A DNA stretch of 64,000 nucleotides, taken from Squalus acanthias. Its lineage: Eukaryota. The notes beneath the pieces were generated by a model. It did no database searches. It saw nothing but the letters and a program-made list of their open reading frames with translations, and had not been told where the DNA came from. Positions 41,118 through 62,644 of the stretch are shown here, one piece after another. Both the position numbers and the translations under genes were made by a program. Location of the stretch: contig CM059431.1 in NCBI GenBank assembly GCA_030390025.1, positions 135,410,001 through 135,474,000 on the forward strand, given 5' to 3'. Each line of letters starts with the position of its first letter. Within the stretch, counting starts at the first letter, position 1.

Positions 41118-42816
41118 TGTAAGGGGTCACGGTACTGGTGCGAGGTGAGGCCTTCGTTGCCTATACTATTGCTTGCTCTGGTCTCCGGCCAGACTTTGGC
41201 AATAAGCACCTGTGAGTGGTTCGACCCACTCGCCCTTACGGTTCTGACACCTGGACTTAGATGCAAGGAGCAGTAATGCAGAGAAAGACTCAAATAGACC
41301 CGGTTGAATAGCACGAAATGAATGTCTTTATTGCATGGCGTCTAAAATCATGAAATACATGTCATAGGTGCAGATCAAAGAGAGAACAAGTATACACACG
41401 TTCATAAAACTTGGTCTATGGAAATGAGGAACACACGACACATCGAAAAAGGGGGAACACATTATACATTAACCTTAGAAAAACCACCCTCCCTCAATAT
41501 ACCTAAACTACGTCTGGATTTGTAGGATCGGAAAACATGCTCACCACTCGGCTCACTTCGGAAATGTAAAATGAGGCACTCAGCTCGTTTCGCTGCAGCG
41601 CCTGACTGTCACGTGGTTGTAAGGGTTTCTGCACCCCACTTGTTTACTCTCGCTGCCGCGAATGGGTCTACCTGGGACGGCCCTGGTAAAGTTCATCGCG
41701 GATGGCTCAGGCTACCCGCTCAAAGAGCCGGAGGGTAAGCCAGATTCCCTGATGTCATGAAGTGGTCTATGGATTCAGACCGGATCGTGGAGTAGTCCGT
41801 AGAATTCAAAGATGGATTCTGTCGTTATATCTTCGGGCGCGGTCGGGGTTTACTGACCGCGGCGGCACGTGGAATTTCTTCTCGTCTTGCTTCTTGTTTT
41901 TCTTCTTGTTACTCGGGCCTCTGGGTCCGGACACCGTTTACCGACGCTCGGGATGGTGTACCCTGTTACCTGCCCTGTCGAGGCGGCTCGTTCCGATTGA
42001 GCTCCACCCAACACTCGAATAACCGACCAGCACAGGCGAAGAGTCAAGAGCCAAGAGAGCCCGAGAGAGTCCAGCCCGAGAGAGAGAGCCCGATTCCTCT
42101 TTTCTCCGTAACTGACTGTAACTGCTTCATCTCCAACACGTAACTGTGTCTGTGTCTGTTTCAAAACTCACTCCCGATGAACATTTGTCCTCTATAGTTA
42201 TACTGTTTTGTCTGCCTTATCCCCCGCTCAAATCAAAGTGTTTATCCTTTGTGTGATTTTGGCGCCCAAAACTCCCAGCATGGGGTGATTATCTTCTTAA
42301 CGGGTTTCGGTATCACCTGAAACTGGCCAACTATCCGTTAATACCTTCTCCATTGTTGAGCCAGCCAGGATGTGTATGAATCGTCTCCTCGACTGGTTTT
42401 GGGGCCCCCCGAATACTGGCTTAATCACCCGCCAATGTCTCTCTCATTGTTGAGCCGGGGGGGTATTTGTGTGTTGATGTGTCTGGATGGGTTCTCGATG
42501 GCCCAGTTCAATGATCCTTACTGTGCGTATGAAACGATTCCAGCACTTATATCATTGCTATTGTCCAGGATGCAAACGGGTTGCATCCTGCCTTTTCAAT
42601 GTGTACCGAGTATGATCCGATCTCATACTGAATGTGTATTTGACGCCATCTTGTCTGCCCACTGTGTCTCTGGAAGCTTCTGCCACGATGCGCGGCGGCC
42701 ATTTTACAGACTTCTGTGTCCTTTATTATCAGGACAGCATTTCGTTTAATAAAAATGATCAATCGAATCTGCTTCTCTCATGTTATTTTGAATCGCGATA
42801 ATTGCGAAACTCTACA
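41118..42816 (-). repeat. Putative 3' LTR (~1.7 kb)
   Basis: On minus: PPT (42817-42829), then TGTAGAG...CCCTTACA abutting CR1 sequence; AATAAA at 41327-41332. There is no second LTR to confirm it. Confidence 0.65.
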
Positions 42817-43211: not shown

Positions 43212-45564
43212 TTACACGGTACTTTCCTCGTTCACGCGCACGTAACGCTCTCTCCACTCCCCTGTGTTCTCCTGCCTCGTGAGGCGTTTGCCTCTTTTGC
43301 AGTGCACGAACAACAGGTACACTACAATTACAACTTGACATACTACCAAAATGTGGGAGGCTATCCTGATCCATGACGGGACTTCGATATTAGTGAACAG
43401 ATCCCACCACGGTGGGGTTACTATGTCCAATATCTCTGCCCCTATCTCTGCAGTTTTCTGTTCCAGGGTGTAAAAATGTTTCTGTGATACCATGACGGCT
43501 TTTAAAATCTTGGTGAGGTGTTCAGGGAGAGGGGGAATGATGTACCCGAAATGCGTGACGAATCGCTGCAAGTCTGTGAAATTCTCTTTTACAGTGAGGT
43601 GGACGGTAGATGGTTCAGGGATTGGGACAATTCGCTGTTGTGCCACTTGAACTTCAGCCCTGGGTTTAAAACAGAAACTGCTGTCACTCACCAGACACCG
43701 GCTGTGCTGTCCATGCTGGTAGTGTTGCGCTGCAGTGGTAACGCAATACGTTCCACCCCCTATGTATGCCACCTGTGGGGGCACATGATCTTGTGTCATT
43801 GCTTCCATGGTGCAATTCATGGGCTTCGCGCCAGCCGTTCTGAACCCGCATTGTGGTATTAAAAAGGCATTCAAGTGCTGGGGACACAGTATGATGTGTG
43901 CTCCCCTGCTACGACAACCCGAGAGGTCGGTACCTGTCATCGTTTGCTCCCAGCGAATGACGTAAGGTGGGACCGCTGCGTAGCGAATGTGGGCTCCCCC
44001 CTGAATGACTCCAATGTTCTCCACCCTGTACACCGGGGCGGGCTTTGCTGTGTCGCCCAACACCGGCATCCGTACTACTATACCCATGATAGTGTGATTT
44101 GACTGTCCGCAGTCCACTGGGACTGGGTATGCCTCTGAGACTAGCCTGAGCTGGCACGGGCTTAATGCGTTCTGAAAAGGGTGGAGCGCCTGCAGGTGTT
44201 TGTTGCTTATCCAGGACGGGACCGAACCTTGTTTTAAATCCTCCAAATTACTGCGGCCCTCGCCCAGTAACCACGCCCCGTATAGTACGCACACCTCGTT
44301 CTGCGCAGCTTGATCGGATGCATTTCGATCTTCCCTGATCAGGGCATTTACCGTTCTCGCATGTTTCTCCAGCTCTGCTATAATCTCTTTTAAGTGTAGT
44401 GTCATGGCCTGGTCCTCATGTAACTCAGACCCTACTACCTTGTTCTCGTTTGTGAGGATGCTTTTTAACTGTGTCTTTAAACCGTTGATCTGTGTCTGCA
44501 GGTCCACATTATCTAGAGCGTTGACCACAGATGTTCCCGTATTAAAAGCAGTGAACACATCGTTCACAGCACCCCTTCTTTGCCTCCCCACCTGACCCAA
44601 AACTTCGTGTGGTGTGGTGTATAAGCCTGTTTTGTCAACCTCTGCAAAATCAAACTCATAAAACTGCCTGAACATGTTTGTTCACAGGACCTGGTACAAT
44701 TTTTCCGTTTCTTTGGGGCACCACTCTGGTAAATGCACCTCGGTGAGATTTAGAATCACCGAGGCCACCGCGTAATGTACCCCCTGATACAGTATCTGTT
44801 CCGTTGGCACCAGTACCAGACCATTCCCGGGCCCCTTAGTGGTTTTAGGGCACCCTTCCTCCTGAGCCAATGCCACCGGAATCGTGGGCGGAGACTTGCG
44901 TGGGCGCGTGATGAGTTCAGTGGCGTTTACCGGGATCGGGGAGAATGGAGCTCCGCACCCCCGGGAGCTGACGTCCCACCTCATCCCTTTCCCGGCATCC
45001 TGCCACTGTTGTAGGAAAAATATGGATATACCCTTGGGGCAAACGTACGTCGATCCCCACATACAAACATATATTCCCTCATCCGGCTCCCACCATTTGT
45101 CCCAACAGACGCTCAATTGTCCGTTAGTCCCCGTAATTGTCCGATGGGTATTGTTACCCAATCGCTCCCACTCGACCGAGGAATTTCTCATAGTCTTGCT
45201 TAACTTCCATAACCACCACCATCGGCTCAATGGGCCGTTCCCATTGCACACCAAACAAATCCTTTTGCCGACGGTGACGCTGATTCTGGGTGCAACGATC
45301 TTCACCCTGGGACACAGTCAAAGAAGTCTCTTGGTACGCAAACCCGGATGCGCTGGAGTATTCCGTTGAATTCGTTCCCAGCCATCCCGGCCACCTTCCC
45401 TTGTGGAAATAAGTGGCGGTTTCCTCAGCGTTTCGCTCCCCGGTCCCATCCGTCGCGATGGGGGCCGTGTCCCTGGAGCAACCGAACACAACGACATCCT
45501 TGGTGAGGCCCCGATAGGCCAATCCACATCCGATCGTTGCGAGCACCACCAGAATCCTTTCCAT
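43212..45564 (-). pseudogene. env: Env: signal peptide, Ig domain, F2-like region, furin site, F1-like ectodomain, TM; 1 frameshift and 1 stop
   Basis: MERILVVLATIGCGLA; C..W..DEGIYVC; RQRR at 44574-44585, then GAVNDVFTAFNTG, a long heptad, a Cys-rich region, a second heptad, PWW and a hydrophobic TM. TGA at 44682-44684 is in frame; an acceptor-like ttttatctgatcacag lies 12 nt before the ATG. Confidence 0.88.
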
Positions 45565-45837: not shown

Positions 45838-46834
45838 CTAAATCCTGAAAAGGCTGCCACGAGCTGTTTCCCGTGGCGGGGGGGCACTGACCCTTGTCTT
45901 TGATCTGCCGCAGCCTGTCGCTGCCGAGCGGGGACTGGGACCTCCCTGGGCTGCCTTGGACTTACGCCTGGGGGTGTACGAGGGATCTGGCCACAACTTC
46001 CTGGGCTGGGACGTCCGACTCGACCTGCGGAGGGCCACCTTGGGCAAGGTCTCCAGGGCCGACGGACCGGGGACCGGGACTTCCACCGTCACAGCCTGTG
46101 GTCCCACCACAGCTGCCGGCTCTGTCTCCCCTGGCTCCGCCCCCCTGGGCTCGGGATCTGCGGTTTCCGACTCCACCCTACTTGTTTCTCCAGTAGGTGG
46201 ATCTCCACTCACAATCCCTACCTCCCCTATGCTTGGGTCGAGGGCGGAACCTCCGTCCTAACCACCTCTCCGACCGGGTCACTAACTTGGTTGTGCCCTC
46301 CGAGCTCTTCCTCATCTGAATCCCAAGAAAAAGAAAAGATCCTACACTTCTCCAGAATGTCCTCTCCCCTCACGCAGGCTGCTTTACCGGCCTGTGTGCC
46401 CTGCGGTTCTACCCGGGGCTGAGAGTCCCCACTCGCAGGTTTGGCCCCTCCCCTAAGACAGGCCACCGCCCCTGCTTGTGCATTCTGTGTAATCTCGCCT
46501 GCTGGAGGCTGAAGATTTCTATTCTGTTTTAGTTTGGGCAACTCTGCTACCATGGCTTGCAACTGCAGGGTGGTGAATTCCCCCGGGGTTGTTGAGCAAA
46601 CCATCCCTCTGGCTTTGGATAGGGCTTGGGTCAGACCTTTTATCCTTTCCTCACAGGGCCCGTGGTTTAAATCCTCATACTCCCTGCTCCTGGCTACCCT
46701 GTAGCTGCCTTTATGTCTCTAAGCTGCCCTTCTAGCTCGTCTACTTTCCCCATTAAGCGGGCGTTCTCCTCCCGCAAGGCCTGCTCTTTTAACCTGGCCT
46801 CCTTACAGGAGGCCCCCTCCTGTGCGTGTCTTTC
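45838..46834 (-). pseudogene. Accessory ORF, paralogue of the Gag coiled-coil region, frameshifted
   Basis: 25/69 identical residues in an ungapped hand alignment to the element's own Gag; low-complexity C-terminal part ending LRRSSRTSQPRKLWPDPSY... Confidence 0.75.
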
Positions 46835-46870
46835 AAGGGGACACAGGTAGGCAAGCTGCACCGGTTCCAG

Positions 46871-48424
46871 TCAGAAGTCTGGGTTGTATGGGGCTGTTGC
46901 TACCTTCGCGTGTGAGGTCATGAGAGACCGCATGGCTCCTAACATGGACTCTATCGCATCGGGATGGATAGGCACACCAGCTCCTCTCTCAGAGACAGGC
47001 GTTTGGGCTCGGACTGCGGGAGCTTTTTCCCTGGAGTCCTTCCAGGGATTCCTACAGTTTTTGCGCCAGTGACCTGCCTTCCCGCACCCGTAACAAACAC
47101 TATTGGTTTGTGGGGCGCGATTTCCCTCCTGATGCCACTCTTTCTGAGCCGGAGCTGCGGGCTTTGCTTCATGCACTTTTCCCTTAAGGGGACGCGCTCC
47201 CGTGCTTCTAGTGTTCCGATACCCTATGGTGAGGTGACTCAGGACAGACTCCTCCGTTGTCTCGGGGTTGGTGGGATCAAACCACGCTCTGGCCTGCTCC
47301 CTGACGGCTGGCAAGCTGTTGGCCACTATGCACCTGAGCCAATGAGCTTTCCCGGCACCGTCCAGGTAGCGGCGCTCTGGCGCACCTGGGCATCTACGCT
47401 GGTATACTGGCCACAGTCTTTCGGCGAAAACCCGTGGGGGTTCTCCCTCTATCTGCACGGTCTGACCCAGTCTGACGAACGGACCTTCGTCATCCACCCC
47501 TAACACTTCTTGGACCTCGTCTCGTAAATCCCCATAGCCCTTAGCTCCCCTCTTGGTCTCGTCGGAGAGACACTGAAGGATTGAGCTATCTAAAGAGAAC
47601 AGCAACATCTTGGTCTTTTCCTCGTTGTCGCAGCCATTAATCGCTGCGGTCTGTTCTACTTCTCTAAAATGCACGGAAGGGTCTCCTGACTCGGACAGCT
47701 TCCGGACATGGCTGATCATTGCCCTCAGCTGCTGTGAGCTGTGGGGCACTACAAGTTGGTTCAGGATGTCCCCGTCTTCCCCATTGTTCCCATTCGGGCC
47801 TCGCTTATGACCTCGGACCGGACACATCGGTCCCGGTCTCGACACTACCTCCGGGGATTGTCCTACCTCGGGAACCTTCTTCTCTATTTCCACCACTTCC
47901 TCCCTTACCCAGGTTTCTGTATAGCTGGGTGGCGCGGAGGGCTTGGTGGTAGATACCACATCTGCTTTTCCCGGTAGGGATTTTGGGAATTCCCTACCTA
48001 CCTGTGGCTGGCTCGCTGATGGGCTGATGAGACACACCAAGCCGTTTGCCTTATTCAGGGCCTCTCTCAGGTTCTCTATCTCCCTCTGGCAAACACTGTG
48101 GTCGGCTCCCTCATGCCTATCCTCGAGAGCCATCTTGTATGCCACCCTAACTCCCCTCAAACTTTCTTCTTGGGCCTTTATCTGGTTAGCTAGGCGGATA
48201 CACCGTTCTTTAATCCTTCCCTCACTTAATTTTGCTTCCGTGACCTGACATTCTAAGTAATCGATCCTAGCCTCGTGGTGGTTGGCTATTATTTGGCGTT
48301 CCTGATGCAACGCATTCAGTGATACAATCAGTCTCTGTCCTCCCGTAACCTTTTCCTCCATCTCTGTTTCTAATTCTCTGATCTGAGCTGCCATGACCTG
48401 GTCCGAAAGTTGGACTTGCTTCTT
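46871..48424 (-). CDS. gag: Retroviral Gag (N-terminally truncated; open frame continuous with the Penelope RT fragment up to 49210)
   Basis: Coiled coil, PSAPPSY late domains, QIEGEPPRVFAERL MHR-like segment, CYGCGKAGHWRKNC knuckle, TGA stop. Confidence 0.88.
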   Translation of the reverse strand, partial: KKQVQLSDQVMAAQIRELETEMEEKVTGGQRLIVSLNALHQERQIIANHHEARIDYLECQVTEAKLSEGRIKERCIRLANQIKAQEESLRGVRVAYKMALEDRHEGADHSVCQREIENLREALNKANGLVCLISPSASQPQVGREFPKSLPGKADVVSTTKPSAPPSYTETWVREEVVEIEKKVPEVGQSPEVVSRPGPMCPVRGHKRGPNGNNGEDGDILNQLVVPHSSQQLRAMISHVRKLSESGDPSVHFREVEQTAAINGCDNEEKTKMLLFSLDSSILQCLSDETKRGAKGYGDLRDEVQEVLGVDDEGPFVRLGQTVQIEGEPPRVFAERLWPVYQRRCPGAPERRYLDGAGKAHWLRCIVANSLPAVREQARAWFDPTNPETTEESVLSHLTIGYRNTRSTGARPLKGKVHEAKPAAPAQKEWHQEGNRAPQTNSVCYGCGKAGHWRKNCRNPWKDSREKAPAVRAQTPVSERGAGVPIHPDAIESMLGAMRSLMTSHAKVATAPYNPDF

Positions 48425-50210
48425 GTTGTTCAATGTGAGAACAAGTTCAGCCAGGTGGAGGAGGGTGGTGGTGGATGGGGTCTGGTTGGGCCTCTGTTCA
48501 AGGAAGAAGCGGAGCGACTTCAGGCCATCCTGGTGGGGGATGGAGGTATAGAGGGATTGTACGCCCATAGTGAAAAGGAGGCGGTCAGGGCCAGGAAATT
48601 GGAAACTGTTAAAGTGGCGGAGGGCGTCGGAAGAGTCGCGGATGTAGGTGGGAAGAGACTGGACAAGGGGAGAAAAAATAGAGTCGAGATAGGAAGAGAT
48701 AAGTTCCGTGGGGCAAGTACAGGCTGAAACGATGGGTCTACCAGGGCAGTCCTGTTTGTGGATCTTGGGAAGGAGGTAGAAGCGGGCTGTGCGGGGTTGG
48801 GGAACTATGAGGTTGGCGGCCGTGGGGGGAAGATCTCCAGAGGAGATGAGGTCAGTGACAGTCTTGGAAACGGTGGCTTGATGTTCGGTCGTGGGGTTAT
48901 GGTCCAGGCAGAGGTAGGAGGTGTCGGAGAGTTGGCGTTCAGCTTCCGCTAGGTAGAGGTCGGTTCGCCAAACAACAAAAGCACCACCCTTGTCAGCAGG
49001 TTTAATGACAATGTCGGGGTTGGATCTGAGAGAATGGAGTGCTGCAAGTTCAGAGGGAGGAAGGTTGGAGTGAGTGAGGGGAGCAGAGAAATGGAGACGG
49101 CCGATGTCACGCCGGCAGTTTGCAATGAAAAGATCTAGAGAGGGTAAGAGGCCAGAGGGAGGGGTCCAGGTAGAACGAGAATTCTGAAAGCGGGAGAAAA
49201 GGTCAGCCATGCGGGGGGAAGACTCCTGGCCAAAGAAGTGGGCACGGAGGCGAAGGCGGCGGAAAAAGAGCTCAGCATCGTGCCGAGCTCGAAATTCATT
49301 GAGGTGGGGGCGTAAGGGGATGAAGCTCAGGCCTTTGCTAAGGACTGATCGTGCGGGGTCAGAGAGGGGAAGGTCAGAGGGGATCGTGAAAACGCGGCAG
49401 GGGGTGAGATTGGGAGAAGGGATGGGTCAGAGGAAAGTGAAGGGGAAGAAGGTTCCGGAGGTGCGTTGGTGTCCAAGAGTTGTTGAAGCTTGCGATCCTT
49501 GCCACCTGAAAGGAAGAAAAAAAGTTTTTTGTTAACGCGCCAGATGAGGCGAAGGATGAAATGGAACTGCGAATCAGGACGGCTTTGAGATAGAGTGAGT
49601 CGGTGCTGCTGAAGAGAGAGGTCGAGAGTGTTCATGTGGCATTGCATGGCATTCAGCGTGGATCTCAGGATGCGGCGAGAGCAGTGGTTCGAGGAACGCT
49701 GAATATCTTGGAGATATCTGTAGTCCTGGGTGGATCCAAAACACGAAGGGTGAATTTCAGTTGGAATCCACGTGGAGTAAGTCGGAGCCGGAGACAGTTG
49801 CTGAGGAAAGATATGTGGCTGTGAAAGCGAGTTTTGGTAGATCCTGATCAAACACGAGAAGGAGACAGAAAGCAATGAAGATGAACAAGGTAAAAGAGAC
49901 AAACGGAAATCCCGTCGAAGAGAAGAGCAGAACTTCTTCAAGGTGGGCATTCCTGGAAGAGAGGTGGCAGTGAATAAACACTAATACAAAAAGAAAATAC
50001 TGCAGATGCTGGAAATCTGAAATAAAAACAGAAAATGCTGGAAATACTCAGCAGGCCAGGCAGCATCTGTGGAGAGAGAAACAGAGTTAACGTTTCAGGT
50101 CGATGACCTTTCGTCAGAACTGGAAAAAAGCAGGAAATGGAACAGATTTTTAAGCAAGTGTAGTGGCTGGGAAATGGGGGAGGGGATGAAAGAACAAAAG
50201 GGAAGGCCTA
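48425..50210 (-). mobile_element. Penelope-like element, 5' half (pseudo-LTR, N-terminal region, RT N-terminal part)
   Basis: Highly similar to 60826-61933 over the shared part; IKPADKGG, YLLPKIHK, GRPIVS; breaks at LTLNN. Confidence 0.93.
50085..50121 (-). ncRNA. Minimal type I hammerhead ribozyme (Penelope pLTR)
   Basis: agtt-CUGACGA-a-aggtc/atc/gacct-GAAA-cgtt-aact: core boxes, stem II, palindromic stem III, stem I agtt/aact. Confidence 0.85.
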
Positions 50211-59603: not shown

Positions 59604-61271
59604 TTATGATCTAAAATTGTTGAACTCGATATTGAGTCCAGAGGGCTGTAGCGTGCCTAAACGAAAGATGAGGTGCTGTTCCTCGAGCTTACGCTGCGCT
59701 TCCGTGAAACAGTGTAATAGGCCGAGGACGGTGAGGTCAGAGTGGGAGTGAAGCGGTGAATTAAAGTGACAGGCCACCGGGAGCTCGGGGTCCCCCTTAC
59801 GGACTGAACGGAGGTGTTCCGCAAAGCGGTCACCCAATCTGCGTTTGGTCTCCCCAATGTAGAGGAGACCACATCGTGAGCAGCGAATACAGTATACTAA
59901 ATTGCAGGAAGTACAAGTAAATCGCTGTTTCACCTGGAAGGGGTGTTTGGGGCCCTGGACAGTGGGAAGAGGGGAGGTGTAAGGGCATGTGTTGCATCTC
60001 CTGCGCGTGCACGGGAAGGTGCCGGGCGAAGGGGAAGGGGTGCTGGGGGTGGTAGAGGAGTGGACTAGGGTGTCGCGGAGGGAGCGGTCCCTGCGGAATG
60101 CTGAAAGGGGAGGTGAGGGGAAGATGTGTTTGGTGGTGGGATCACGCTGGAGGTGGCGGAAATGGCGGAGGATGATCCGTTGAATGTGGAGGCTGGTGGG
60201 GTGAAAGGTGAGGACAAGGGGAACCCTATCGTGGTTCCGGGAGGGAGGGGCAGGGGTGAGGGCAGAAGTGCGGGAGATAGAACGGACACGGTCGAGGGCC
60301 GTGTCGACCACGGTAGAGGGGAATCCTCGGTTGAGGAAAAAGGAAGACATGTCGGAAGCACTGGTATGGAAGGTGGCATCATCAGAGCAGATGCGGCGGA
60401 GACGGAGAAACTGGGAGAATGGAATAGAGTCCTTACAGGAGGCGGGGTGGGAGGAAGTGTAGTCCAGGTAGCTGTGGGAGTCAGTGGGCTTGTAGTGAAT
60501 GTTAGTCAAAAACCTATCCCCAGAGATGGAGATGGAGAAGTCGAGGAAGGGAAGGGAAGAGTCGGAGATGGACCATGTGAAGGTGAGGGAAGGGTGGAAA
60601 TTGGAAGTATAGTGAATGAAATGTTCTAGTTCAGGGCGAGAGCAGGAGACGGCACCGATACAGTCATCAATGTACCGGAAAAAGAGGTGAGGGAGGGGAC
60701 CCGAGTAGGACTGGAACAAAGAGTGTTCCACATATCCCACGAAAAGGCAGGCATAGCTAGGACCCATGCGGGTACCCATAGCAACACCTTTAATTTGGAG
60801 GAAATGGGTAGAGTCAAAGGAGAAGTTGTTCAATGTGAGAACAAGTTCAGCCAGGCGGAGGAGGGTGGTGGTGGATGGGGACTGGTTGGGCCTCTGTTCA
60901 AGGAAGAAGCGGAGCGCCCTCAGGCCATCCTGGTGGGGAATGGAGGTGTAGAGGGATTGTACGTCCATAGTGAAGAGGAGACGGTTGGGGCCGGGAAACT
61001 GGAAACTGTTAAAATGGCGGAGGGCATCGGAAGAGTCGCGGATGTAGTTGGGAAGAGACTGGACAAGGGGAGAAAAAATAGAGTCGAGATAGGAAGAGAT
61101 AAGTTCCGTGGGGCAAGAACAGGCTGAAACGATGGGTCTACCGGGGCAGTCCTGTTTGTGGATCTTGGGAAGGAGGTAGAAGCGGGCTGTGCGCGGTTGG
61201 GGAACTATGAGGTTGGCGGCCGTGGGGGGAAGATCTCCAGAGGAGATGAGGTCAGTGACGGTCTTGGACAC
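59604..61271 (-). CDS. Penelope RT plus GIY-YIG endonuclease (555-aa open frame, N-terminally incomplete)
   Basis: TMDVQSLYT, GVAMG, RYIDD, FLD, linker CTRRRCNTC, VYCIRC..C.LLYIGET.R.L..RF.EH, E, GLN. Confidence 0.92.
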   Translation of the reverse strand: MSKTVTDLISSGDLPPTAANLIVPQPRTARFYLLPKIHKQDCPGRPIVSACSCPTELISSYLDSIFSPLVQSLPNYIRDSSDALRHFNSFQFPGPNRLLFTMDVQSLYTSIPHQDGLRALRFFLEQRPNQSPSTTTLLRLAELVLTLNNFSFDSTHFLQIKGVAMGTRMGPSYACLFVGYVEHSLFQSYSGPLPHLFFRYIDDCIGAVSCSRPELEHFIHYTSNFHPSLTFTWSISDSSLPFLDFSISISGDRFLTNIHYKPTDSHSYLDYTSSHPASCKDSIPFSQFLRLRRICSDDATFHTSASDMSSFFLNRGFPSTVVDTALDRVRSISRTSALTPAPPSRNHDRVPLVLTFHPTSLHIQRIILRHFRHLQRDPTTKHIFPSPPLSAFRRDRSLRDTLVHSSTTPSTPSPSPGTFPCTRRRCNTCPYTSPLPTVQGPKHPFQVKQRFTCTSCNLVYCIRCSRCGLLYIGETKRRLGDRFAEHLRSVRKGDPELPVACHFNSPLHSHSDLTVLGLLHCFTEAQRKLEEQHLIFRLGTLQPSGLNIEFNNFRS

Positions 61272-62644
61272 GGTGGCTTGATGTTCAGTAGTGGGGTCAT
61301 GGTCCAGGTGGAGGTAGGAGGAGGTGTCAGAGAGTTGGCGTTCAACTTCCGCTAGGTAGAGGTCGGTTCGCTAAACAACAACAGCGCCACCCTTGTCAGC
61401 AGGTTTAATGACAATGTCAGGATTGGATCGGAGAGAATGGAGTGCTGCAAGTTCAGAGGGAGGTAGGTTGGAGTGAGTGAGGGGAGCAGAGAAATTGAGC
61501 TGGCCGATGTCACGGCAGCAGTTAGCAATGAAAAGATCTAGAGAGGGTAAGAGGCCAGAGGGAGGGGTCCAGGTGGAACGAGAATTCTGAAAGCAGGAGA
61601 AAGGGTCAGCCGTGTGGGGGGAAGACTCCTGGCCAGAGAAGTGGGCACGGAGACGGAGGCGGCGGAAAAAGAGCTCAGCATCGTGCCGAGCTCAAAATTC
61701 ATTGAGATGGGGGCGTAAGGGGATGAAGGTCAGGCCTTTGCTGAGGACTGATCGTTCGGAGTCAGAGAGGGGAAGGTCAGAGGGGATAGTGAAAACGCGG
61801 CAGGGGGTGAGATTGGGAGAAGGGGGGTCAGAGGAAAGTGAAGGGGAAGAAGGTTCCGGAGGGGCGTTAGTGTCCAAGAGTTGTTGAAGCTTGCGATCCT
61901 TGACATCGGAAAGGAAGAAGAAAAGTTTTTTGTTGTCTTTTCTTAAGTATGGACACCAAAACTGTATGCAGTATTCCAGATGCGGTCTCACCAATACCTT
62001 ATATAACTGCAGCAATACCTCCCTGTTTTTATAATCTATCCCCTAGCAATAAAAGCCAACATTCCGTTGGCCTTCTTGATCACCTGCTGCACCTGCATAC
62101 TAACTTTTTGATTTTCTTGCACTAGGACCCCCAGATCCCTTTGTACTGCAGTACTTTCCAGTTTCTCGCCATTAAGATAATAACTTGCTCTCTGATTTTT
62201 CCTGCCAAAAAACAGCGCAGTACCCTCTACAGGGCATCTGGGATGTAAGTGAACAGGATAAGCAACTGTGTATCTCCTTAACCAATCAGATTGAAGGATC
62301 ATGAAATTAACAGCGCAAGGTCTGTGTGAGTTAGAATGGTGAATTCAATGTCAAATCAGGTACAGAAAGAGAAATAAAGAGAGCGAAAGAAAGATTGGAT
62401 TAAGGAGAGAGAGAAAAAAGAAACAAAAAGATAAAGTAAAAAAAAAATTGTTTTAATTGTTTAAAAAAAAACTCAAACCACAATTAAAACCTGAAGGAAT
62501 GAGACTTTACAATTGTAACAGTTAATTTTCAATGGCAGAGAGGTTGACTGGCAGTAATTAACACTTATCACATCATTAAAAGTGTTTTTGATGAGTAATG
62601 ACTAGAATAAACTTCTTGTTGCGAGTTTAGTTCTTATCTACTGT

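Follow-up and report, generated by a model that had tools for sequence, protein, structure and literature searches.

Does a retroviral envelope protein of the shark Squalus acanthias carry an immunoglobulin (Ig) domain ahead of an F-like fusogen, and if so, what would such a domain do there? Discussions of F-type fusion proteins usually treat them as bare machines in need of an attachment partner, and paramyxovirus F works with a separate attachment protein. The env locus described here lies in a stretch of 64,000 nucleotides of contig CM059431.1 (assembly GCA_030390025.1, positions 135,410,001 to 135,474,000), which we call the window, and a first reading of its letters had proposed a captured Ig module between the signal peptide and an F-like body, serving as a built-in receptor-binding or immune-decoy domain. 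The Env of the lokiretroviruses is F-like and related to F0 of the Mononegavirales, not to orthoretroviral Env (Wang and Han 2020, PMC7947760), and foamy virus Env gp130 (8RM0/8RM1; Fernandez et al. 2024, PMC11468914) combines an F-like core with its own receptor-binding module. The latter describes the F fold as a minimal scaffold that takes receptor-binding modules either N-terminally or as insertions (PMC11468914).

Results

The env gene, its sister copies and the provirus

The env remnant of the window (Table 1) corresponds to a single open reading frame (ORF) of 783 amino acids in intact copies, whose residue numbering is used here. A single frameshift and an in-frame stop interrupt the remnant. 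The suspected frameshift is real: the extra base at about 45319 is missing at the aligned position in all seven other copies. The TGA at codon 294, whose conservation had been named beforehand as the sign of a separately encoded Ig part, is private to the window copy and occurs in none of the seven others. Three copies hold an uninterrupted env ORF, namely L003 and L005 (both 783 amino acids) and L002, which is ten residues shorter with identical start and end, and the N-terminal 300 Env residues are unbroken in five of the seven other copies. The order in intact copies is signal, short N-terminal segment, Ig-like domain, F2-like strands, RQRR, fusion peptide and transmembrane (TM) anchor, and signal, Ig and F parts are thus encoded as one continuous ORF in L002, L003 and L005, as had been anticipated. 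This ORF is kept open in many sister copies within the same genome, with about 120 of the 150 best-scoring N-terminal Env matches free of internal stops, and the endogenous retrovirus family to which the window copy belongs is very abundant.

The window copy itself is a dead, 5'-truncated, pol-deleted gag-env derivative. The 5' end of gag and the 5' LTR are missing, the gag ORF continues upstream into a LINE-like RT fragment, and no protease, RT or integrase core was found in the segment between gag and env. The LTR of the reference copy L009/L010 measures about 1.6 kb. The full-length copy L011/L007, which also has LTRs of about 1.6 kb, shows the order LTR-gag-pol-env-LTR that characterizes lokiretroviruses, and it encodes PR, RT, tether, RNase H and IN (RVP, RVT_1, RT_RNaseH_2, RNase_H, Integrase_H2C2 and rve); no second glycoprotein gene was found between its pol and LTR. 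The Gag knuckle reads C-Y-G-C-G-K-A-G-H-W-R-K-N-C (Pfam zf-CCHC, E 0.0027 on the full copy). Compared with solved structures, the RT scores 235 bits against chains that we take to be gammaretroviral RT (XMRV/MLV), 203-215 bits against chains read as foamy PR-RT and 147 bits against Ty3.

Table 1. Features of the provirus in the window; residues follow the intact 783-amino-acid Env.
Feature	Position	Strand	Residues	Remarks
3' LTR	41118..42816	minus		homology split into four blocks
env remnant of provirus	43212..45564	minus		783-aa single ORF in intact copies
Transmembrane anchor	43299..43370	minus	732-755	direct reading
Hydrophobic GAVNDVFTAFNTGTSVVNAL	44573-44514	minus		directly after RQRR; fusion peptide by position
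Basic cleavage motif R-Q-R-R	44574..44585	minus	327-330	direct reading
F2-like part	44586..44852	minus	238-326	
In-frame TGA	44684-44682	minus	codon 294	
Pro-rich linker	44853..44900	minus	222-237	low pLDDT in AF2 model
Ig V/I-type domain	44901..45314	minus	84-221	138-residue segment
Cys167 of DEGIYVC (F-strand)	45065-45063	minus	167	
WWW (C-strand)	45221-45213	minus	Trp115-117	
Cys106 (B-strand)	45248-45246	minus	106	
Frameshift	45319 (approx.)	minus		one extra base relative to copies L003 and L005
N-terminal segment	45320..45516	minus	about 17-82 or 17-83	67 residues
Start codon and hydrophobic N-terminus MERILVVLATIGCGLA	45517..45564	minus	1-16	direct reading
Gag-env intervening segment (pol-deleted form)	45838..46870	minus		gag-like coiled-coil piece and integrase C-terminal tail
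gag remnant	46871..48426	minus		coiled coil, capsid-like part, CX2CX4HX4C knuckle

Hallmarks of an Ig domain at the N-terminus of Env

Residues 1-16 (MERILVVLATIGCGLA) read as a putative signal peptide that would be cleaved, and the AF2 model described below places a low-confidence helix at residues 2-13. The N-terminal segment that follows has a conserved Cys29 and the motif H-x-G-R-W-P-G-W-L-G-x-N-S-T, and is modelled as strands 23-30, 36-38 and 48-59 and then a disordered loop. The idea that it holds the remains of another Ig domain found no support: with 67 residues, few modelled strands and a disordered loop the segment is too short for a full Ig domain, and since the proposed signature is in part frameshift text, we do not regard it as a second one. 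The piece 'SLTVS' is out-of-frame text past the frameshift, and was discarded; intact copies read ...QETSLLCPRV... at this point.

The Ig hallmarks themselves were found on the minus strand where they had been described, in a domain located past the signal peptide and ahead of the conserved F2-like strand. Positions 45248-45063 (minus) translate to a 62-residue stretch with a cysteine at both ends, and the resulting Cys106-Cys167 spacing of 61 falls within the range of about 55-75 residues expected of an Ig domain; the two cysteines would form the canonical B-F disulfide. The F-strand D-E-G-I-Y-V-C fits the pattern D/E-x-G-x-Y-x-C. The C-strand tryptophan had been placed 13 residues past the B-strand cysteine, and here the details needed correction: tryptophan is present at 9-11 residues past Cys106 (Trp115-117), which we count as agreeing with the usual 10-15, and the one at +13 is a private substitution of the window copy. 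A second cysteine pair, originally numbered 17/67, is present as Cys103/Cys153. The 10 natural sequences scored for conservation share 50-96% identity with the first; both B-strand cysteines, the third tryptophan of WWW, the E-strand cysteine and the F-strand glycine and isoleucine are invariant in all 10, and the F-strand tyrosine and cysteine as well as the first two tryptophans of WWW are kept in at least 90%. Other features are unusual for an Ig domain, namely the WWW run itself, a W-D-K-W-W in the E-F region and six cysteines within residues 84-203. By direct reading there are four N-x-S/T sequons within residues 65-213.

Profiles, language models and predicted structure

Pfam returned no significant family for three ORF pieces of the window and the protein P0001. 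For the ORF with the Ig domain, the only family listed is Ig_3 (11.5 bits, E 0.44, cut-off 30), and the best relative, P0011, reaches 17 bits and E 0.0085, also below the cut-off. The Pfam check proposed for 45305-45030 names the expected kind of domain at sub-threshold strength. When a profile of the domain was searched against the PDB, the two best matches were CRTAM Ig V, aligned end to end at marginal E-values of 0.011 and 0.022. For residues 80-200 the language model returns Ig clusters as neighbours (0.88-0.90), and nine of the ten best family-carrying matches belong to one clan.

A first AF2 run from a 10-sequence alignment was poor (pLDDT 40.6) and was not used for the fold search. The second run, with 21 natural sequences, gave a pLDDT that averages 62.6 and lies at 69-89 across residues 81-170; of its five models, four score 42-55, and 96 of 300 residues fall below a pLDDT of 50. 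Its strands (81-97, 102-107, 115-120, 132-134, 141-145, 149-154, 163-171, 180-186, 200-204 and 215-220) are predicted, with moderate confidence, to include those of a two-sheet Greek-key sandwich that can be superposed on solved Ig domains. Foldseek found 110 matches in the PDB at E<=0.001, and among the matches listed all are V domains (IgNAR V, VL) with a TM-score by target of 0.55-0.66, many of them titled after the parent antibody complex. In a comparison by VIA-align with 48,161 representative chains, the best rows (at least 50) have Z-scores of 7.0-7.9, a range that by the tool's own note is common for models without a clear match; the rows listed are mostly of Ig type (CD8a, CD79b, TCR V, titin, NCAM2), and some bear the title of a complex with a Fab or nanobody. 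Applied to the Foldseek matches, VIA-align reached up to Z 8.2 with an rmsd of 2.4 A over 95 of 107 residues, and some alignments lie wholly inside residues 84-221. The AlphaFold check that the original prediction had called for yielded a model that matches Ig V domains, at moderate confidence. The CRTAM V match over the whole length, taken with a predicted fold that matches Ig V, means that the Ig pattern exceeds chance.

A viral structure library gave as best matches Ig-bearing proteins of pox-, herpes- and adenoviruses, three of them at E<=0.001. Poxvirus haemagglutinin A56, herpesvirus vIgFam and adenovirus CR1 are, like the shark Env, viral membrane proteins with an N-terminal Ig V-like domain; unlike it, they are separate proteins outside the fusogen, with a TM-score by target of 0.22-0.40 and no sequence relation seen.

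The F-type body

The F2-like part, with the pattern C-P-x-T-x-G-P-x-N-G-L-V...L-Y-x-x-V-x-Y...N-L, is the first stretch common to all distant Env relatives. The skate and sawshark Env relatives have an RxxR site as well, and 28 residues of tail follow the TM anchor. A profile of the Env family matches foamy virus Env (8RM1 chain D, E 1.2e-4; 8RM0 chain A, E 5e-4) over profile positions 328-486, about 160 residues of the beta-rich core, and the language-model matches of residues 236-745 are PF00523 F0 clusters (0.92, 200-203 shared features). The PF00523 HMM has no match in P0001 at E<=1, and matches one of 18 family members (E 0.036). The foamy Env profile match and the F0 neighbours bear out the proposed F-like body, and judged by its sequence the Env body is F-type, of the paramyxovirus-F / foamy-virus-Env kind. 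Paramyxovirus and pneumovirus F (PF00523) share with it the F2-like strands, basic site, fusion peptide, long heptad, beta-rich domains, second heptad and TM anchor, whereas they have no N-terminal extra domain and the shark Env has about 220 residues before F2.

Distribution and evolution of the domain

Env relatives in Rhinoraja (75-79% identity), Pristiophorus (53-63%) and Rhincodon (44-48%) share this architecture, as do two further Env subfamilies of the Squalus acanthias genome, and the domain is common to Env subfamilies that are only 50-65% identical, other sharks and skates included. It is conserved under constraint. Between subfamilies, dN in the Ig region is 0.28-0.34 with dS saturated, and dN in the F1 body is 0.09, so that the head evolves about three times faster, as is usual for receptor-binding subunits.

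We also looked for a host donor of the domain. A HMMER search of the whole protein library with full Env gave 49 proteins, each aligning to some Env stretch; no host IgSF protein was found among the 25 examined, in which host-gene names belong to chimeric gene models. The domain profile, run among longer proteins (word-indexed), gave six proteins, five of which are known Env relatives or chimeric models. The suggestion of a captured module, read as recent host capture, is therefore unsupported: the two sequence searches returned no host IgSF protein, and the domain is present in diverged subfamilies and in other sharks and skates.

UniRef automatically names P0014, which is distantly homologous to the Env and also comes from a shark, 'Ig-like domain-containing protein'. 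Aligned by hhalign with the N-terminal alignment of the P0014-like family, the domain profile gave a 25-column match over the E-F strands (probability 6%, E 0.006), and PDB searches with that alignment and with the N-terminus of P0039 were non-significant (E 0.3-1.8), with Ig proteins included among the matches. Position and pattern nevertheless suggest that the heads of the two families may be homologous. Env proteins of the P0013 group carry a Cys-rich head.

Discussion

We propose, with a probability of roughly 0.55, that the region is the membrane-distal Ig-like head of the F2-equivalent subunit of an F-type retroviral Env, and most likely its receptor-binding module. Behind the signal peptide, a short beta segment (17-83) would lead into an Ig V/I-type beta-sandwich (about 84-221) held by the B-F disulfide Cys106-Cys167 and further conserved cysteines, and from this head a Pro-rich linker would run on into the first conserved F2-like strands; the RQRR site, fusion peptide, F-like body, TM anchor and short tail would come next. 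Engagement of a receptor by the head would then release the metastable F-like trimer, at whose outer end the head is expected to sit. We favour receptor binding because the provirus has a single env gene and the F scaffold has no dedicated attachment module of its own.

Some F proteins, such as pneumovirus F, attach alone, and binding could therefore reside elsewhere than in the head. The head could instead be a genuine Ig-like cap that stabilises the prefusion trimer, a glycan shield, or an immune decoy or modulator, with attachment left to the F-like body or to unspecific factors. The four sequons would suit such a role, as would the immunomodulatory or surface function of the Ig-bearing pox-, herpes- and adenovirus proteins that are most similar in fold, and in foamy Env the RBDs likewise seal the prefusion trimer at its apex (PMC11468914). 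We nevertheless find this unlikely: the placement of the head and the fact that it evolves faster than the fusion core are in keeping with a receptor-binding subunit, and Env offers no other candidate binding module; moreover, capping and receptor binding can coexist in one domain.

A different objection is that the segment may not belong to the IgSF at all, being some other small beta-sandwich or a Cys-rich mimic that AF2 has drawn to the commonest sandwich. Every sequence score is sub-threshold, model confidence is moderate and the Z-scores middling; the tryptophan runs and the six cysteines are atypical, and hhalign linked the domain to the P0014-like family over the short, low-probability stretch given above. 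Against these points, four independent kinds of signal agree (conserved hallmarks, PDB profile, language model and fold search), and UniRef names P0014 as Ig-like, which makes a non-Ig fold quite unlikely in our view. Large DNA viruses have repeatedly captured Ig domains, Ig domains are typical of hosts, and viral Ig proteins are among the structure-library matches, all of which could suggest that the retrovirus family of the window copy recently took up a host IgSF exon. This we consider very improbable: Env subfamilies with 35-50% residue differences and saturated synonymous sites share the domain, skate, sawshark and whale shark relatives have it too, and the searches described above give no close host IgSF gene.

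Returning to the receptor-binding head, we compared the shark Env with known systems. The coronavirus spike, compared with it solely through one language-model row at 0.87, has N-terminal modules that are much larger and are not known to be a single Ig V-like domain. Like the shark module, they lie N-terminal to an F-related core ('subclass Ib', PMC11468914). Lokiretroviruses resemble the shark elements in having proviruses with gag, pol (tether and RNase H) and env between LTRs and an Env with signal peptide, basic cleavage site, fusion peptide, coiled coil and TM (PMC7947760), and frogs, one of their reported host groups, carry distant full-length relatives of the shark Env. An N-terminal Ig-like domain is undescribed for lokiretrovirus Env in the available text of PMC7947760, where 'immunoglobulin' occurs 0 times, and the hosts named there are lampreys, bony fishes, amphibians and reptiles, with cartilaginous fishes unlisted.

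The Gag of foamy viruses is not known to carry a Cys-His knuckle, whereas the shark Gag has one of the CCHC type. Foamy Env is, like the shark protein, a retroviral class I fusogen with an F-like core, and it has its binding module upstream of the furin site (PMC11468914), as the shark Env has its putative one. The foamy RBD, however, comprises about 330 residues of a previously unseen fold, placed as an insertion that separates the HRC helix from the furin site (PMC11468914), while the extra module of the shark Env is Ig-like, about 140-200 residues long, N-terminal, and ahead of all F2-like strands. From the conserved Cys282 to RQRR the shark Env has a stretch of only about 45 residues, and a foamy-type RBD insertion is not found there. 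No long leader peptide was seen in the shark element, nor any accessory genes after env. A foamy-like endogenous retrovirus, an assignment raised by the gp130 match, was rejected on the Gag knuckle, the position of the extra domain and the lack of genes after env. As foamy Env already is a retroviral F-like fusogen with its own binding module (PMC11468914), the general architecture has a precedent among retroviruses, which the original prediction did not know of; the shark Env differs in that its module is Ig V-like and lies at the N-terminus. Such an Ig domain is undescribed in the available portions of PMC7947760, PMC9040795, PMC12440569, PMC13524379, PMC13709493 and PMC11468914, and we found no description of an Ig-headed F-type retroviral Env in the searchable lokiretrovirus literature.

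A bolder extension of our reading, which we think unlikely, is that the Ig V-like head is ancestral to an F-type retroviral Env lineage reaching from cartilaginous fishes to frogs, that it derives from a nectin/CRTAM-like adhesion V domain, that entry runs through V-to-V contacts of the head with an IgSF adhesion molecule of the host, and that the lineage, which has many open env genes in the Squalus acanthias genome, was infectious very recently or still is. If this were true, the virus would show a mimic of its receptor's natural ligand, and the Ig head would be a third solution on the minimal F scaffold beside the foamy insertion and coronavirus S1.

Foamy virus Env has shown that retroviruses can graft a binding domain onto an F scaffold (PMC11468914). 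A second, different graft, in the form of a small N-terminal Ig V-like domain conserved in diverged shark and skate Envs and possibly in those of frogs, would offer a compact and tractable candidate RBD for an otherwise uncharacterised group of vertebrate retroviruses. The shark Env adds cartilaginous fishes to the hosts of retroviruses with an F-type Env, and how F-like fusogens gain attachment would become testable with a domain of 140 residues.

Results

The Ig-like segment lies in the env gene of an endogenous retrovirus (ERV), and our data show that one gene encodes the signal peptide, the Ig-like segment and the fusion protein. A DNA search of the shark's own 3.7-Gb genome with window positions 44685-45564 gave 2,582 candidates, and the 40 that were scored have identities of 96-100% and lengths of mostly 879, not 880, bases. 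Seven sister copies (L002-L008) were retrieved for comparison. Two of these, L003 and L005, carry a 783-codon env without interruption, and L002 has a likewise uninterrupted frame that starts and ends at the same points but is 10 residues shorter. The window env differs from L003 and L005 by one extra base and by 40 and 50 substitutions, respectively, over 2,352 bases; neither the extra base nor the in-frame TGA occurs in any of the seven other copies. Env is uninterrupted in three of the sister copies and both lesions are private to the window copy. The stop at 44682 is thus not a conserved one, and the check that was to refute the original prediction favours a single ORF.

Features of the provirus and its surroundings in the window
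Feature	Window position	Strand	Remark
3' LTR	41118-42816		homology in four blocks, gaps near 41662-41734 and 42055-42174
Natural stop of env	43214-43212	minus	same frame as after the TGA
In-frame TGA in env	44684-44682	minus	env continues beyond it in the same frame
Extra base in env	~45319	minus	env sense carries on in a different frame until the TGA
env, first frame	from 45564 downward	minus	MERILVVLATIGCGLAYRG..., single frame
gag and the spacer before env	45838-48426	minus	counterpart L009 1-2527
End of proviral homology	48426		5' LTR missing
LINE-like reverse-transcriptase fragment	48426-49426	minus	gag frame runs into it without stop
Second copy of the LINE piece	60825-61618		12.4 kb off, 93-94% identity

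A full-length provirus copy (L007/L011) encodes a Gag with a CCHC knuckle, followed by protease, reverse transcriptase (RT), a tether-like RT_RNaseH_2 domain, RNase H and integrase (H2C2 and rve), with env next. Against solved structures its RT scores about equally with chains that we take to be gammaretroviral and foamy enzymes. Pol has been deleted from both the window copy and the L003/L009 copy. Here Gag and env are separated by a spacer, made up of a piece similar to the coiled coil of gag itself and of integrase's C-terminal tail; in L009, the reference copy for the LTR, about 22 residues of this spacer are duplicated internally. In several of the pol-deleted copies gag and env are both still open, suggesting a non-autonomous form that full-length copies helped to spread. 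At about 1.6 kb in the reference copy, the 3' LTR is of unusual length. The two LTRs on either side of the L003 copy share 96.7% identity, a value that, at this one locus, points to fairly recent activity. The window copy has lost its 5' end, and the read-through of its gag into the LINE-like fragment makes an 851-codon stop-to-stop frame. Candidate matches to this Env number thousands genome-wide, and the genome has four or more diverged families of Env (that of the window copy and the L012, L023 and P0014/L027 types); open frames of 780-870 codons occur in several of the further Env loci L012-L033, for example 784 in L027.

Numbered as in the intact copies, the Ig hallmarks are Cys106 within I-C-L-V-C, Trp115-117, Cys153 and D-E-G-I-Y-V-C ending in Cys167; their window coordinates were verified by translation, and the positions are invariant or nearly so in 10 natural sequences with 50-96% identity to the first. 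Sequence methods point weakly in one direction, towards Ig. Pfam Ig_3 matched with E 0.44 in the window copy and 0.58 and 0.0085 in two relatives, all far under the gathering score; the domain profile against the PDB placed the CRTAM Ig V domain in its top two matches (E 0.011 and 0.022, whole-domain alignment) and DIP-eta, an Ig protein, third; and in the language-model search residues 80-200 have Ig clusters as neighbours, with scores of 0.88-0.90 that the tool rates as borderline.

A first structure model, from 10 sequences, was poor (pLDDT 40.6). The second alignment was enlarged with natural, unaltered translations from the same genome, taken from two more Env subfamilies and from one Env family at a greater distance, and the best model, from 21 sequences, reached a mean pLDDT of 62.6 (69-89 at residues 81-170, 61-88 at 21-60). 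Foldseek searches of the PDB with the head model gave 110 matches at E<=0.001, those listed being V domains (shark IgNAR V, antibody VL chains). An all-against-representatives comparison with VIA-align, independent of Foldseek, returned 50 rows at Z 7.0-7.9 that include CD8 alpha, CD79b, TCR and antibody V, titin, NCAM2 and BTLA, a few rows being titled by a complex with a Fab or nanobody. On re-examination the Foldseek matches reached Z 8.2 (rmsd 2.4 A, 95/107 aligned), and several of these alignments fall wholly inside residues 84-221. In a viral structure library the best matches were Ig-bearing proteins from pox-, herpes- and adenoviruses. Since these independent lines agree, despite Z values that are middling by the tool's own caution and a model of moderate confidence, an Ig V/I-type sandwich is the most likely predicted fold of the head, at a probability of about 0.8-0.85. 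The proposed remnant of a second Ig domain upstream is not supported: part of the evidence cited for it was out-of-frame text, and for residues 17-83 (67 residues, with conserved Cys29 and Cys84) the model shows three strands plus a loop that is disordered.

Read directly, Env continues past the head with F2-like strands and, at 327-330, RQRR. Next come a hydrophobic peptide, a long helical stretch and a beta-rich part that contains Cys, and the protein ends with a TM segment at 732-755 and a tail of 28 residues. The F-type relation of this body is also seen in the language-model neighbours of residues 236-745, which are F0 clusters (0.92; 200-203 shared features), then baculovirus-F and gypsy-Env clusters. 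PF00523 matches only one of the 18 family members (E 0.036). The profile of these 18 matches the foamy virus Env structures 8RM1 (E 1.2e-4) and 8RM0 (5e-4), codes that belong to PMC11468914.

Named relatives of this Env come from the cartilaginous fishes Rhinoraja longicauda, Pristiophorus japonicus, Rhincodon typus, Chiloscyllium punctatum and Mustelus asterias and, more distantly, from the frogs Pelodytes and Mantella. Relatives from skate, sawshark and whale shark (44-79% identity) share this N-terminal architecture, as do two or more further subfamilies in this genome, and about 120 of the best 150 N-terminal matches (out of 5,830 candidates), a sample skewed to intact copies, have no internal stop. 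Between subfamilies the Ig region has a dN of 0.28-0.34 with synonymous sites saturated; L003 and L023 share 0.59-0.63 amino-acid identity in the head against 0.85 in the F1 body (dN 0.09). This is the pattern of a constrained yet faster-evolving surface subunit.

Discussion

The original prediction that the Ig module was captured by the virus fares differently for recent and for ancient capture. A whole-library HMMER search with the full Env gave 49 proteins, each aligned along some stretch of the query; 25 were examined, and the host-gene names among them belong to chimeric gene models. A word-indexed profile search with the domain over longer proteins gave six matches, five of them already in that set. 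Recent capture from a host is unlikely, because neither the full-Env search (25 of 49 proteins examined) nor the domain search (six proteins) contained a host IgSF protein; an ancient capture may have occurred. In the public models P0004, P0009 and P0016, pieces of ERV env are joined to host genes, among them the Pristiophorus japonicus models named 'Niban 1-like' and 'zinc finger protein ZFP2-like' and a Rhinoraja model rich in repeats; all are probably chimeras of gene annotation and not cases of co-option.

In some more distant full-length Envs, too, a B-strand Cys, Trp and F-strand-like pattern stands just ahead of the conserved C-P...G-L-V...L-Y motif: P0014 of Chiloscyllium (named 'Ig-like domain-containing protein' by UniRef), the two frog proteins, P0039 (V-set match, E 0.045) and, within this genome, the L027 family. 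Profile-profile comparison of the heads of two shark Env families gave no significant match, and PDB searches with the more distant heads gave non-significant matches only, so that an Ig head ancestral to the entire Env lineage is a lead, not a result. A related lineage with 24-31% identity in the F-like body (P0013 of Mustelus asterias, P0024 and P0032 of Pristiophorus) has a different, Cys-rich N-terminus that keeps an I-C-F-T-C ... L-Y-V-C pattern at similar spacing; it may represent an Ig head after strong divergence, or else a module that was exchanged.

The data establish gene continuity, conservation, a predicted fold and the F-type relation. As the provirus has one glycoprotein gene and the F-like core offers no other candidate attachment domain, we infer that the head is a receptor-binding module at the trimer apex, in an Env whose signal peptide would be cleaved and whose head would be held by disulfides. 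Receptor engagement, possibly aided by low pH, would release the fusion peptide, and F-like refolding could follow. The main rival is that the head is a cap, shield or decoy; such roles are compatible with receptor binding and do not exclude it.

Retroviral Envs of the F-like type are already known, and so is one that carries a receptor-binding domain (RBD) of its own. Lokiretrovirus Envs are related to F0 (PMC7947760), and the present provirus matches lokiretroviruses in genome plan and F-type Env; cartilaginous fishes are absent from the hosts named in the accessible part of that paper. In foamy virus Env the F-like core has an RBD inserted between subunits (PMC11468914), whereas the extra module here is N-terminal, and foamy-like membership does not hold, given Gag and the position of this domain. 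The authors of PMC11468914 regard the F fold as a minimal scaffold that carries receptor-binding modules N-terminally (coronavirus spike) or between subunits (foamy virus). The present Env has the N-terminal topology of the coronavirus spike, with a module that is much smaller and Ig-like.

In the main texts of the literature searched, we found no description of an Ig V-like N-terminal head on an F-like retroviral Env. The likeness of the family profile to 8RM1 and 8RM0 falls, at the sequence level (E ~1e-4), in the beta-rich core of foamy virus Env, and this similarity may serve as a bridge between F-like ERV Envs and the spumaviral Env.
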